Source: a virus
UHGV virus genome: UHGV-0258472
DNA: 55,135 bases
Reading direction: 5' to 3' (one strand)
Shown: piece by piece, positions 8,506 to 54,804 of the stretch
Layout of the letters: each line of letters begins with the position of its first letter
How positions within the stretch are numbered: position 1 is the stretch's first letter
Position numbers and translations under genes: made by a program
The notes under the pieces: generated by a model
The model's database searches: none
Told to the model about the DNA's origin: nothing
The model's input: only the letters and a program-made list of their open reading frames with translations

Positions 8506-8664
8506 AATGCTCTCTCCTTTTCAGGTGATTTCTACGCATTTCAGCGCTGCCGGATTTTTAAAGAGCATTTTGTTTGCTTGAAGTATACAAAATGGATACG
8601 TGCTAACAAGGTGTAAAGCGCCATTATGTGACATTCATCACACAATGACGCCATTTTGTAAACT

Positions 8665-9453
8665 TCAGTCCGGCAAAACGCGGTTGAGCGTAGTACGATT
8701 GATGGCCCGGTCGTTAGCCAGGAATACAGCACGGGCGAAGCCACGCGGCGTTAGTGAGCGGATCATCTTTGTTCGCTTTGATTTTCCGCCTAACTTCGCG
8801 TGCTGCTTACTGTCTTCCCATTCATCTGGCATCGGCACAGGACGGAATAGCGGCTGCTTAAATCCATTCCCGCACCAAATACAAGTTTTCTTCGTGTAGG
8901 CGTCGCGGTCGGCAATGTATTCCGGGAAAGCGGGATGTTTATCATCTTCCGGCAGGTAGCCACCGTAAGCGCAAGGATTGAAGATAAAATCCGGTTTACG
9001 CCATAACGTTGACAGCACGCCAACAGGATTTTCAACCATCCACGGCACGTTATACATGTTAGCCAGAGATTCAACCAACATTGCGTTTCTTGCCGCCTTA
9101 TTCTGAAAACAAGGATCTTTTCTGTATTTATCAACGAACCAACGAGCGCCGGACACAGCAAGATCATCACACGGAGGAAAGCCCAGGATAATGTCAGGAT
9201 CTGGATATACAGACAATTCAGGTGAGAACATTACCAGAAAATGGCTATCAATCCAGACGTTAACATATTCAATATTTGGATGAATTATTTTTACACCGTC
9301 ATAATCACCGTGATTAGCGCCGTCATAGTTGAAGCAATAACATTTATAACCAGCGTCCGCCCAATCTTTAACGGCGTACCCGCTGCCGTCGTACAGCGAC
9401 CATACCACCCAATTTCTAAGCCAATTATTTAACCAATGTTTAGCCCTGCTCAT
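8665..9453 (-). CDS. putative DNA (cytosine-5)-methyltransferase-like protein
   Basis: Motifs resembling C5-MTase motif I (LYDGSG), IV (GFPPCDD, PC-type) and VI (ENPVG); ATG at 9453. Confidence 0.5.
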   Translation of the reverse strand: MSRAKHWLNNWLRNWVVWSLYDGSGYAVKDWADAGYKCYCFNYDGANHGDYDGVKIIHPNIEYVNVWIDSHFLVMFSPELSVYPDPDIILGFPPCDDLAVSGARWFVDKYRKDPCFQNKAARNAMLVESLANMYNVPWMVENPVGVLSTLWRKPDFIFNPCAYGGYLPEDDKHPAFPEYIADRDAYTKKTCIWCGNGFKQPLFRPVPMPDEWEDSKQHAKLGGKSKRTKMIRSLTPRGFARAVFLANDRAINRTTLNRVLPD

Positions 9454-15634: not shown

Positions 15635-15925
15635 TTAATGGTAGCGGACTTTATCCAGTGGTTTTTCCCCTAGCTGACGTGGTTGCGTTGCGTGGTAGTA
15701 GTTGCCGCTTTCATTTTCCGTATACCATTTTACTGATCCTTTGCGACGTTCTTTAATGCTATTTGATTTGCATCTTTCCTCGTTTGCAAAGCGAATAGCT
15801 TTATCCACATTGTCTGTTTTATTAATTGCAGGTGATGATTTTCTTTCGTTTTCTCTTTTTATTCTTCTGCGTTCCCTGGCATTCAGTTTACTGTCACATT
15901 TGCCATACATGATTGTAACTGTCAT
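15635..15925 (-). CDS. hypothetical basic protein (96 aa)
   Basis: ATG at 15925 with SD aaggag; first gene after the large non-coding region. Confidence 0.45.
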   Translation of the reverse strand: MTVTIMYGKCDSKLNARERRRIKRENERKSSPAINKTDNVDKAIRFANEERCKSNSIKERRKGSVKWYTENESGNYYHATQPRQLGEKPLDKVRYH

Positions 15926-16406
15926 GATCTGATCTCCTTATATCCTTGATGATACTTAATAAAAAATCATCTTCGTTAATTGCCGCACTTCCAGCGGCTG
16001 ACCAGATTGTTAAAGAATGGCTTAACATCTTTCAACTAATCCCGCAATCATCGCCGTTTCCGGTGTGACCCTGCTCACTCCAAGCAAGCTGACTCGTCGC
16101 CTTGCGTGCGGTTTCGTGGGGGATGTGACGCTTTAGACACCCCATGCGCCTTGTTATCAGTGCCGCTTTCGGTCCCCCATCGGGGAGTTACTCCACGGTT
16201 GACAAGGTGTTAAGCCTGATTTTTAAAGTGCCAGGAAGGCGCTTTTTGTTTCCTGCCTCCTTCCTTTGATTCGCAATATACGCCCTGTGATATACCGAGT
16301 CAATCCATTTTGTATACTTTTTTAAAATATTTTATATATCATTGATATTTAAATTATAAAAACAGTTTTTTGGTTTACGTTTTGGTTATTTTACGGGCAA
16401 AGAAAG

Positions 16407-16422
16407 GCCGCCATCCGGCGGC
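16407..16422 (-). terminator. GC hairpin downstream of the repressor gene
   Basis: gccgccggatggcggc stem-loop on minus strand followed by ctttctttg. Confidence 0.4.
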
Positions 16423-16428
16423 TAATGT

Positions 16429-17076
16429 TTATGGCAGGTTTACGATCTTCGCGTCAACTACCACACCTATGATTTTAGATTCTGGATTCATAGGGATTGG
16501 CGGATACAGCGGATTGAGCGAACGTAAAAGCCTTTGACCTCCATCAATAACAAGCTGTTTAAACGTAGGTGTTTGCCCTTCCTCCAGTTGGGCTATAACC
16601 AGTTTTCCGTCAATAGCTGGCGCGTGCGGATCGACAAGTATCATCGTCCCCGCTGGTATACTCAATCCTTGCGGCGCGTTCATTGATTCGCCTTTAGCTA
16701 CCAGCCAATAACTATCATCTGAACAAATAACGCTAGTCGTAACGTGTGGTAATGTTGCTCGCCTTGTATCTTCCATATTGTTTACTGCGTCCTTCCAGTC
16801 AACAACCGGGTAACTACCTAAATCACGCGGCGGCGCTCCCGGTAATGTATTAGAAATAGAATCATCTATGACCATTCCATCGTGTGTAACAGTGAATTGC
16901 CGACGCCCAAGCGCCCGCATGATACGCGCAATATCTTCAAGATTCGGCTCGCGGCGACCGTTCAGCCAGTGTGACAGGCCGCCTTTAGTTATCCCCATGA
17001 GATCCGCGAGTGAATCCTGGCTCATGCCTTGCGCCCGCATGAGTTGCTTTGCTAAGTCGTACCATTTTGTTTTCAT
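16429..17076 (-). CDS. CI-type prophage repressor (XRE HTH plus LexA-like S24 peptidase domain)
   Basis: N-terminal HTH (SQDSLADLMGITKGGLSHWLNGRR) and C-terminal Ser-Lys autopeptidase region (GESM ... KQLVIDG); ATG at 17076. Confidence 0.85.
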   Translation of the reverse strand: MKTKWYDLAKQLMRAQGMSQDSLADLMGITKGGLSHWLNGRREPNLEDIARIMRALGRRQFTVTHDGMVIDDSISNTLPGAPPRDLGSYPVVDWKDAVNNMEDTRRATLPHVTTSVICSDDSYWLVAKGESMNAPQGLSIPAGTMILVDPHAPAIDGKLVIAQLEEGQTPTFKQLVIDGGQRLLRSLNPLYPPIPMNPESKIIGVVVDAKIVNLP

Positions 17077-17100: not shown

Positions 17101-17200
17101 GTTTGACGCAAGTCACAAAACGTATTTTTCAAGCCTTGATCTTAAAACTCCATTCTGTAAACTTGCAGACAAGGTAAGGCCATACTTGCAAGGATGCAAG
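17101..17200. promoter_or_regulatory. candidate operator/promoter region between divergent repressor and rightward genes
   Basis: Repeated (A)CTTGCA(A)G-like half-sites (tgacgcaagtca, acttgcagac, acttgcaaggatgcaag) in the divergent intergenic region. Confidence 0.4.
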
Positions 17201-17380
17201 AAAAAAGATAATGGAAAGCACAAAAAGGCACATACCTTAAAAGCTCTTTAAAAATCCGGTGTCGCTGCGAAGCGAAAAACAAATATCACGCAACGGCGGG
17301 ATCTGTTGAGCGGTCAGTCACTGCTATCTAATGCTAATGGGATACCCGCCAGCGCGTTCACTCTAATCATAGGAGAAAAT

Positions 17381-41206: not shown

Positions 41207-41455
41207 AATTTAACCTCATACAAAATGTGATCTATGTCTCTATTTTATACAAAATGGCTTCATTTCAACGAATACATTTTGTATAAAGAAGGTGAAGGAT
41301 GAGAGAGATAAAAGAAGGTCGAAGGATATAAAGGATTAAGACTTGAAGCACAGCTAACCGATGGAACGAGGGAGGCGAAAACCCCTAAAACTAAGGAAAC
41401 AGCAAAGGGATTTAAAAGGCCGGATTAACCGGAGGAAGCAAAAGAGGATAAGAAA

Positions 41456-41545
41456 ATGAAAAACGTAAACTACCGCCCCAACGAACATGAACGCTATGCG
41501 GACTTCATCGAAGAAATGTTAAAAGCACTTAAAAACAAAAATTAA
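41456..41545 (+). CDS. micro-ORF (29 aa), moron cassette C
   Basis: ATG 41456 with SD agaggata. Confidence 0.35.
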   Translation: MKNVNYRPNEHERYADFIEEMLKALKNKN

Positions 41546-41556
41546 GCGAGGCGCAC

Positions 41557-41664
41557 ATGGATACCATCAAAAGCATCATAGAAGTGTATATATCAGCATG
41601 GGTGGCTTTTAATGTAATGGCTGTATTCGTGCTGGCATTAACAATAAAAGGCGAATGTAAATAA
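41557..41664 (+). CDS. small hydrophobic peptide (35 aa), moron cassette C
   Basis: ATG 41557 with SD gaggcg; single TM-like segment. Confidence 0.35.
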   Translation: MDTIKSIIEVYISAWVAFNVMAVFVLALTIKGECK

Positions 41665-41675
41665 GGCGGTGCATC

Positions 41676-54325: not shown

Positions 54326-54804
54326 GTTTCACCCCATTCGCAAACGGCATATTCAACATCACGGCGGTTAACCAGGCCTTGCCACTTCTTACCGCCAGCG
54401 TATACCCAGCGTTTAAGCTGTGCGCACGCCTCTGATTTCTTGCCGTCATTGAGTAGCTTCAATAAGGTTGATGTTTTGAAGTTGGTAGCGCCTACGTTAT
54501 AGGCGAATGAATAAAGCGCCGCGCGGGTAAAATCTGATATTTCGACTTTAATATATGGGTCAATCGCTTTTGCGGTTTTGTGGAGATCCTTGTTTAACAA
54601 AGCATCGCATTCTGATTGCGTGTAAGTCTTACCAAGCATGATGTCTTTTCCGGTGTGACCATAGCAAACTGTCCATACGCCGATAACATCACGATAGGGA
54701 TCGTACTCCACGCCCTCTAATGGTTTAACCATCACCGCCGCAATAGCGATCGCCCCACCAGCCGCCGCAGCAATAATCTTATTCTTCAGCGATTGGCTAA
54801 TCAT
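54313..54804 (-). CDS. SAR-endolysin (lysozyme with N-terminal signal-anchor-release domain)
   Basis: N-terminal Ala/Gly-rich weakly hydrophobic segment followed by E-x8-D-x5-T-type lysozyme catalytic region ([22 protein letters not shown]); start set at ATG 54804 just after holin stop. Confidence 0.8.

Follow-up and report, generated by a model that had tools for sequence, protein, structure and literature searches.

A conserved RNA cassette with a predicted multi-branched fold between two boxA elements in the early leader of an mEp021-like phage

An early control region of an mEpimmI-type phage

We analysed the viral genome UHGV-0258472 over a stretch of 55,135 nucleotides (hereafter the window), and in particular its positions 15,926 to 16,428, which separate a repressor gene from the gene of an N-like antiterminator and carry, in the leader of the latter, a conserved cassette that is the main subject of this report. 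The 503-base region is 94.9% identical to coliphage mEp021 (MH706966) and 87-93% identical to six other "mEp" or related phages, and it is present once each in 35 complete Escherichia coli genomes, where the NCBI annotation pipeline (PGAP) calls nothing. Judged by these matches, the source phage is a close relative of mEp021, the archetypal member of the mEpimmI group, whose temperate phages come from human faeces, are non-lambdoid and depend on Nus factors (PMC11893012).

The region is read here on the minus strand, to which all coordinates of leader features below refer unless marked otherwise. It runs from the end of a CI/LexA-type repressor gene (16429-17076, minus strand; phrog_4, E = 6e-42) to the start of a gp17-like gene (15635-15925, minus strand), whose 96-residue product is an N-like antiterminator with an arginine-rich motif, NARERRRIKRENERK, and matches phrog_271, 'anti-termination protein N-like', with E = 3.1e-10. 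From 16428 to 15926 the order is repressor terminator, AT-rich spacer, a recurrent 15-nucleotide motif, a predicted promoter and an untranslated leader of about 340 nucleotides, followed by gp17. The region is best read as the control region and 5' leader of an immediate-early operon headed by this N-like antiterminator gene. According to the account of earlier work given in a 2025 paper (PMC11893012, citing Valencia-Toxqui 2023), the Gp17 protein of mEp021 acts in early antitermination at three sites, nutR1, located 5' of gp17, nutR2, kilobases downstream, and nutL, across the repressor gene; N- and Nus-dependent read-through of terminators is reported there for Gp17 with nutR1, nutR2 and nutL.

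A cassette between two boxA elements

An alignment of the leaders of 43 IMG/VR relatives separates two forms that differ by one cassette. The cassette consists of a first boxA copy, boxA1 (16231-16218, GCACUUUAAAAAUC), one nucleotide, and a GC-rich domain of 198 nucleotides (16216-16019) that is predicted to form a structured RNA with a 9-base-pair (bp) closing stem and two multi-branched subdomains. The closing stem pairs GGCUUAACA (16216-16208) with UGUUAAGCC (16027-16019), and the borders of the domain coincide with this inverted repeat, which begins one nucleotide past boxA1 and ends at the base before a second copy, boxA2 (16005-16018). The latter reads AUUCUUUAACAAUC in the window, GCUCAUUAACAAUC in most relatives and a perfect GCUCUUUAACAAUC in relatives that lack the cassette. 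In this short form, found in 10 of the 43 IMG/VR loci and in phages mEp554, mEp044 and mEp013, the stretch between the two boxA copies is exactly absent, and the order is promoter, about 38 nucleotides, one perfect boxA, boxB and gp17. With the cassette the untranslated leader measures about 340 nucleotides, and without it about 125.

The long form occurs in about 33 of the IMG/VR loci, in 31 of the 35 E. coli prophages and in mEp021, mEp010, mEp515 and MagusPhagus; counting these prophages and about 35 of 45 IMG/VR contigs from two viral-contig scans, some 80% of relatives keep the cassette. Both types of gp17 and boxB (described below) are found with and without it. The most distant Gp17 relatives have the short form, within a family that is narrow (52 clusters, all at least 62% identical) and had no match in a Gp17 scan of GTDB genomes. 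Among 150-bp segments up to 2.5 kb away on each side, none follows the presence of the cassette. A miniature inverted-repeat transposable element or insertion sequence remnant was considered in view of the inverted ends and set aside, as the domain is single-copy in each of 31 E. coli genomes, absent from the plasmids searched and elsewhere always at the same locus.

Sequence constraint and predicted fold of the domain

Among cassette-bearing phages, the nucleotide diversity (pi) of the domain is 0.0068 over all 32 loci and 0.010 over distinct sequences. For comparison, pi is 0.061 in the variable, purine-rich 5' end of the leader (16232-16268, with insertions and deletions at 16247-16248), 0.081 in the promoter and 0.106 in the AT-rich spacer, the most variable segment of the region; at fourfold degenerate sites it is 0.122 in gp17 and 0.136 in the repressor gene. 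The domain therefore evolves about 18 times more slowly than the fourfold sites of the flanking genes, and this comparison between relatives shows the 198-nucleotide domain to be under strong sequence constraint. Unpaired and paired columns are conserved nearly equally, with 12 of 86 and 11 of 116 varying, respectively. In the 5' end of the leader, a candidate hairpin (CAGGAA/UUCCUG) was rejected, being broken in most relatives.

An earlier note on this DNA, made from the letters alone, had proposed that the region could hold a long structured leader or a small regulatory RNA, had pointed to potential stem-loops in the GC-rich part and had called for a covariation analysis across relatives. 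Run on the 17 distinct variants, RNAalifold returned a consensus of 58 pairs in which 99.8% of cells are paired, arranged as the closing stem, a 5-bp extension and two subdomains built on four-way junctions; the perfect 9-bp stem is predicted to be extended by 3 + 5 bp across internal loops. The two stem-loops named in that note reappear as helices 6 and 4 of this fold. Compensatory changes occur in helix 9 alone (16070-16088), which is CUUGCUU-GGAGU-GAGCAGG in the window and AUCACUU-GGAUU-GAGUGGU in the five loci of the type-2 gp17 lineage: three pairs have changed on both sides with pairing kept, and both U.G pairs are retained. The other approximately 180 nucleotides of the domain differ in that lineage at one or two positions only. 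Further changes in the fold affect single pairs (UA/UG, CG/UG and GU/GC), and five G.U pairs are invariant. On the plus strand these five pairs, like the U.G pairs in helix 9, would turn into C.A mismatches, so that the relevant RNA should be that of the leader-sense strand. The structured leader considered in the note is supported in that the GC-rich part is a conserved and probably structured RNA of the leader strand. A 14-nucleotide repeat of part of hairpin 10 (GGTCACACCGGAAA, minus strand) was also seen at 54647-54660, within a minus-strand open reading frame (ORF), and is probably due to chance.

boxA, boxB and the nut sites

Three exact copies of the 14-mer GCNCTTTAAAAATC are present in the window (0.00 expected), one at 8553-8566 (minus strand), one at 16218-16231 (minus strand), which is boxA1, and one at 17243-17256 (plus strand), each oriented with local early transcription. 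Relative to the gamma-proteobacterial boxA consensus GYTCTTTAANA (PMC5725501), boxA1 (GCACTTTAAAA) and boxA2 (ATTCTTTAACA) each match at 10 of 11 positions, the mismatch of boxA1 being at consensus position 3, while 8556-8566, 17243-17253 and the boxA of short-form relatives match perfectly. boxA1 is invariant in the cassette-bearing IMG/VR set; outside this set it has one substitution in the E. coli prophage L046 (GACACTTT) and one extra A in mEp021 and in L002. Diversity is higher in boxA2 (pi = 0.044).

boxA1 is not followed by a boxB-type hairpin. Six nucleotides after boxA2, by contrast, lies the boxB hairpin GCCGC-UGGAAGU-GCGGC (15982-15998, -10.1 kcal/mol; pi = 0.0065), and hairpins stand 5-6 nucleotides after the other two boxA copies as well, GCGC-UGAAAU-GCGU at the 8553-8566 site and UCGC-UGCGAA-GCGA at the 17243-17256 site. 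The stem of boxB covaries among relatives, which carry GCUAC-UGAAAU-GUAGC, UGCAC-UGAAAU-GUGCA or UCGC-UGAAAU-GCGA in its place, and the loops are kept as the purine-rich UGAAAU, UGCGAA or UGGAAGU. These replacements accompany Gp17 proteins only about 62-74% identical, so that hairpin type tracks protein type. The nut-like sites that the earlier note had suspected are thus borne out: a match to the boxA consensus, a boxB hairpin and a cognate arginine-rich N-like protein encoded in the same phage are all present, and two other sites in the genome share the boxA/boxB layout. The rest of the leader (15926-15981) holds the Shine-Dalgarno sequence AAGGAG (15939-15934), at which a ribosome-binding site is annotated in mEp021.

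In position, the 8553-8566 and 17243-17256 sites match the published nutR2 and nutL. By our reading boxA2 plus boxB (16018-15982) would be the published nutR1, for two reasons. It varies more than the other nut sites do, which is how the 2025 paper (PMC11893012) describes nutR1. In addition, it lies 7,946 bp 5' of the boxA of nutR2 in the mEp021 record, which fits the "more than 7.9 kbp" reportedly given in the abstract of the 2023 Gp17 study.

Several further observations concern these sites. Gp17 comes in at least two types, about 74% identical (seen in relatives L044-L047, L054, L075, L083 and L084), and the boxB stems at nutR1 differ between them by compensated changes while nutL is unchanged, which makes these phages a small natural data set on the co-variation of an N-like protein and its boxB. 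AUCUGGUC (15999-16006), comprising the end of boxA2 and the spacer, is complementary over 8 bp to GAUCAGAU (15926-15933), which sits between the Shine-Dalgarno sequence and the gp17 AUG; the leader's minimum-energy fold includes this pairing, which is kept in type-1 relatives and reduced to 5 bp in type 2, without covariation. Two alternative pairings with boxA are also possible: the boxA core CUUUAAA has its complement in the 10-nucleotide loop of helix 6 (16127-16136), which reads UUUAAAG in most relatives, and the 3' arm of the closing stem (16019-16027; UGUUAA) may pair with UUAACA of boxA2, 8 nucleotides downstream, instead of with its 5' arm. In one metagenome contig (L091, OQVL01004386.1) the leader switches abruptly in mid-boxB to unrelated sequence, owing perhaps to rearrangement or truncation of the prophage or to a chimeric assembly.

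A possible Nus-loaded leader domain

We regard it as probable that the cassette is a cis-acting, Nus-loaded structured domain of the gp17 leader, possibly excised. The layout agrees with that seen at ribosomal RNA (rRNA) operons: boxA1 ends at 16218, the 5' arm of the closing stem starts at 16216 and the 3' arm ends at 16019. In the model proposed for rRNA, Nus factors and SuhB bound to boxA and tethered to the polymerase aid formation of a long-range helix, which RNase III then cleaves (PMC4807359), and boxA1, one nucleotide, the 5' arm, 180 nucleotides of structured RNA and the 3' arm resemble that model in miniature; the mechanism that we propose follows from this resemblance. The domain would be the first RNA made from the early promoter. 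boxA1 would load the host NusB/NusE (Nus factor) complex ahead of a long untranslated stretch and might shield the polymerase from Rho, by analogy with CRISPR arrays, where boxA before a long untranslated RNA loads the Nus complex and prevents Rho termination (PMC7665894). Holding the 5' arm at the polymerase would help the long-range stem to close, as has been proposed for the boxA/16S rRNA stem, and closure would place boxA1 beside boxA2 and boxB, where Gp17-dependent antitermination would assemble just as it does in the short form. Once folded, the domain might act in cis on the gp17 leader, through messenger RNA stability, translation or the efficiency of antitermination; alternatively, RNase III might cleave the closing stem and release the domain as a stable RNA.

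More tentatively, the cassette could represent a new class of phage structured RNA with the layout of a miniature rRNA gene, in which a Nus-chaperoned processing stem surrounds an RNA of about 180 nucleotides with an early function of its own. This is possible, and we would not put it higher than that. Such a function could be the binding of a ligand, a host factor or a defence protein, or the tuning of the N-type antitermination complex, and helix 9 would then be a fast-evolving specificity arm.

Several observations weigh against a cis-acting, Nus-loaded domain. The start site, the processing and the effect on gp17 are all deduced from sequence. The cassette is dispensable, in that phages without it are viable isolates of the same immunity group (PMC11893012). 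The one-position deviations of boxA1 and boxA2 from consensus mean that Nus binding at boxA1 is not assured. The very low diversity of the domain may be due partly to a recent spread, through recombination between the boxA repeats, and not to constraint. A single lineage and a single helix supply all of the covariation, and the remaining pairs, being invariant, are uninformative on the fold. Fold energies are modest and alike on both strands (z against shuffled sequences = -2.56 sense and -2.68 antisense); thermodynamics alone is therefore insufficient, and the comparative data carry the case. Finally, a 37-codon ORF within the domain, discussed below, is open in all 17 distinct variants.

Among the alternatives, a stable trans-acting small RNA that rides in the leader and is released by cleavage of the closing stem, by RNase III or another nuclease, is a minority view to which we give some room. 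Early in infection it could act on a target in the host or in the phage; for instance, it might titrate a host factor or a defence system as a decoy, or confer immunity in the manner of the P1 c4 and P4 CI RNAs. The domain is indeed a self-contained unit closed by a stem, its loops are conserved as well as its stems, it behaves as an independent cassette that is combined with two different gp17/boxB types, and, like rRNA behind boxA, it would be the first RNA from a strong early promoter. Yet it was found at one leader position only, throughout the E. coli genomes, phages, plasmids, IMG/VR, metagenomes and GTDB searched; it has no terminator of its own and matches neither C4 nor any other Rfam family. 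Complementarity to the rest of the phage is not convincing either: 14 eleven-mers were found where 4.4 were expected, but they overlap and are partly palindromic, and complementary 10-12-mers as trans targets were rejected, since they do not rise convincingly above shuffled sequence and the best of them are repeats or palindromes. A small RNA of the opposite strand, running from about 16058 (TTAACA-18-AATCAT) to a hairpin at 16225-16245 and repressing the gp17 leader, is hardly credible. The plus strand offers promoter-like and terminator-like matches and the z-score given above, but the promoter match is weak (9 of 12) and equally frequent in shuffled sequence, the hairpin region is variable among relatives, and an RNA of this strand would have mismatches at all five invariant G.U pairs and at the U.G pairs of the covarying helix. 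Neither the terminator-like hairpin nor the promoter-like sites of the plus strand are conserved, and they were dropped as candidates.

The conserved sequence might instead encode a peptide, either a small protein or a regulatory upstream ORF, which we consider unlikely. The earlier note had called the region the largest non-coding stretch of the genome, without any ATG-initiated ORF preceded by a ribosome-binding site. At a cut-off of 60 codons on both strands, 15933-16428 (496 bp) is the longest ORF-free stretch of the window, as claimed; at 50 codons it ranks second, with 437 bp against 445 bp at 41231-41675, and small ORFs of 26-44 codons are present in the region. One of these, contrary to the second statement, does begin with ATG (16032-16145, minus strand, 37 codons); it is gp16 of mEp021 and is also annotated in the mEp515 and mEp010 records, and its 7 synonymous to 10 non-synonymous changes are less skewed than random change would give. 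The statement holds to the extent that the Shine-Dalgarno sequence is a weak AAGG, three nucleotides from the ATG, and that evidence for a gene is poor. The ATG lies within a predicted helix, the 71 nucleotides of the domain outside the ORF are conserved equally, and in the type-2 lineage LAWSEQG has become ITWIEWC, five radical replacements in seven residues that coincide with the compensated RNA pairs. The peptide matches no PHROG family, and PGAP makes no call here in the 35 E. coli genomes. At the position of the domain, the genome records hold an automatic small ORF only; PHANOTATE also calls a 37-codon ORF in the unrelated leader of the short form, so that such annotations, in records based on this program, carry no weight. 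Gp16 is thus probably not a gene product. Of still smaller probability, in our estimate, is a functionless by-product of recombination among nut regions, either foreign DNA trapped next to a boxA duplication or the remains of a mobile element, whose apparent conservation would be due only to recent spread. The flanking boxA repeats could mediate gain and loss, presence and absence are scattered over gp17 types, and the 9-bp terminal inverted repeats and the dispensability of the cassette would fit. Against this, diversity falls about 10-fold exactly at the cassette borders, with pi = 0.06 in the DNA within 40 nucleotides 5' of it; the type-2 substitutions cluster in one hairpin and keep its pairing; about four-fifths of relatives retain the cassette; and, with a single copy per genome, it is not an active repeat element.

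Comparison with known systems

In general layout the locus resembles PL-nutL-N of phage lambda. Both have an early promoter just past the 3' end of the repressor unit and in the same direction, an untranslated leader with boxA and then a boxB hairpin, a first gene for a small arginine-rich N-like protein, dependence on host Nus factors and additional RNA structure in the leader. An RNase III-sensitive structure in the lambda N leader reportedly modulates translation of N (Kameyama et al. 1991; Wilson et al. 2002). Unlike lambda, the present phage has two boxA copies, and its 198-nucleotide multi-branched structure stands 5' of boxA2 and boxB rather than between boxB and the ribosome-binding site. 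This structure is, moreover, a cassette missing in close relatives and without sequence similarity to lambdoid phages in a blastn search with the domain, and a third nut site lies 7.7 kb downstream.

With the rrn operons the cassette shares a boxA one nucleotide 5' of the arm of a long-range helix that surrounds a structured untranslated RNA, behind a strong promoter. It differs in that the enclosed RNA is 180 nucleotides instead of 1.5 kb, in belonging to the leader of a messenger RNA and in having a second boxA after the 3' arm. boxA elements are also found upstream of CRISPR arrays and in the 5' untranslated region of suhB (PMC7665894, PMC5725501). There, as may be the case here, boxA is near the start of an unusually long untranslated transcript and the Nus complex is set against Rho; in contrast, boxA1 departs from consensus at position 3, and N-type antitermination is present at the same locus as well.

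The put RNAs of phage HK022 are factor-independent antiterminators of about 70 nucleotides with two stem-loops, present in two copies (putL and putR), that replace N. They too are structured RNAs just downstream of an early phage promoter, whereas the domain is multi-branched, absent from the gp14-side leader and coexists with nut sites; its 198 nucleotides, its single copy and the presence of an N-like protein exclude a put-like RNA. The c4 RNA of P1 and P7 and the CI RNA of P4 are likewise compact folded RNAs in the leader of an early operon, processed from the leader of the operon that they control. The domain is about 2.5 times larger than these, has no match to the C4 model at E values up to 10 and has no complementary phage targets that we could find.

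No other known family was recovered. Rfam 15 at gathering score gave 0 matches in the whole window, and Rfam at E values up to 10 on 2 kb and on 306 nucleotides gave chance-level matches only (P14, ceN108 and a viral pseudoknot); ARAGORN found no tRNA or tmRNA. A blastn search with the domain against 50,697 phage records returned mEpimmI phages only (four). The domain occupies one place per genome in 31 E. coli genomes and was found on no plasmid, and scans with 20-23-mers and with a boxA-gap-boxA pattern returned mEpimmI-type loci only in IMG/VR and metagenomes and none in GTDB species genomes. The papers on the mEp021 group that we consulted make no mention of a 198-nucleotide domain between two boxA elements. 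The promoter and the nut parts are what one expects of an N-type phage, and some of this has been published; the cassette seems not to have been described before.

Antitermination of the N type is textbook material, and published work covers the nut sites of the mEp021 group but apparently not the cassette. If functional, the domain would be an uncommon example of a nut region with a large structured RNA inside it. It would also offer a natural test of an idea that has so far come mainly from rRNA, namely that Nus factors on boxA assist RNA folding over long distances and guard untranslated RNA against Rho. Since isolates with the cassette (mEp021, mEp010 and mEp515) and without it (mEp013, mEp044 and mEp554) exist in one laboratory collection, this is directly testable, in a phage group that is common in the human gut.

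Promoter, terminator and a recurrent motif

The remaining elements of the region bear out the earlier note, which had placed a repressor terminator, a GC-rich and an AT-rich segment, a copy of a recurrent motif and perhaps the leftward early promoter here. GC content is 0.60-0.61 at 16050-16199 and 0.20 at 16300-16399, the latter largely the AT-rich spacer (16320-16399, GC 0.20, no strand assigned) located 5' of the early promoter. A terminator scan found the intrinsic terminator of the repressor gene at 16407-16422 on the minus strand, with the hairpin GCCGCC-GGAU-GGCGGC followed by CUUUCUUUG (given by the scan as CTTTCTTTG on the minus strand). Its stem is invariant among relatives and the loop alone varies (GGAT, TGGT or GAAT). 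It is annotated as TERM_1/T1 in the mEp021 and mEp515 records, and t1 is given as an experimentally demonstrated terminator (PMC11893012).

The best match to the sigma-70 consensus in the region (10 of 12) is a minus-strand site at 16303-16275, TTGACT (16303-16298), 17 nucleotides and TATATT (16280-16275), which we predict to be the early promoter of the gp17 operon; transcription would start near 16268. Both hexamers and the 17-nucleotide spacing are identical in 80 of 97 related loci, and the spacer sequence occurs in 18 versions. Retention of the hexamers while the spacer varies is the pattern expected of a real promoter. The motif copy is also present, with a full length of 15 nucleotides (CCATTTTGTATACTT, 16305-16319, plus strand); on the minus strand it lies one nucleotide 5' of the -35 hexamer. 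At three or fewer mismatches, the window holds 16 copies, against 2.3 expected, a number reached by none of 100 shuffled sequences, and the copy at 16305-16319 has pi = 0.005 among relatives. We consider it a candidate site for a regulator or operator. The papers on the mEpimmI group that we consulted map neither its promoters nor its operators; the promoter and motif predicted here offer first candidates for both.

The same geometry of motif and -35 hexamer recurs at two minus-strand promoters, 17115-17164 and 16275-16319: the weak repressor promoter reads AAGTTTACAGAATGG-AG-TTTTAA-17 nt-TACGTT and the gp17 promoter AAGTATACAAAATGG-A-TTGACT-17 nt-TATATT. At 17150-17164 the motif copy further overlaps a divergent promoter-like site on the gp14 side, TTGATC-16-TAAACT, at its -10 (TAAACT), an arrangement that recalls OR2 of lambda, where one promoter is repressed and the other activated. 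By this analogy, the motif may serve as an operator for the repressor or for some other regulator of the phage. Good copies (at most two mismatches) are also seen at 2371, 19932, 21075 and 44974, in early-left, replication and structural regions; they lie in or beside short intergenic gaps on both strands. Their orientation is independent of gene direction, which fits a protein-binding site and not a promoter element.

nutR2 has a promoter-like site of its own, TTGTTA-16-TATACT (8582-8609, minus strand), with its -10 inside an exact motif copy (8581-8595) about 15 nucleotides 5' of the boxA; a further copy lies at 8651-8665. Transcripts may thus start close to nutR2 itself, in addition to reaching it by read-through from 7.7 kb upstream. 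A second pattern, TCAC-N4-CGTAT, at 16278-16290 (minus strand) and 17113-17125 (plus strand), overlaps the -10 of the gp17 and repressor promoters, and its gp17 copy is an inverted repeat, TACGGGGCGTA, in most relatives. Written as TYACRNNNCGTAT, a pattern defined post hoc, it has 2 sites against 0.46 expected, and 8 of 100 shuffled sequences reach 2; as a candidate second type of operator it is only a lead. On the gp14 side, the leader past nutL (17296-17352, plus strand) contains a long GC-clamped hairpin, GGCGGG...CCCGCC, with about 45 nucleotides inside, just 5' of the gp14 ribosome-binding site.

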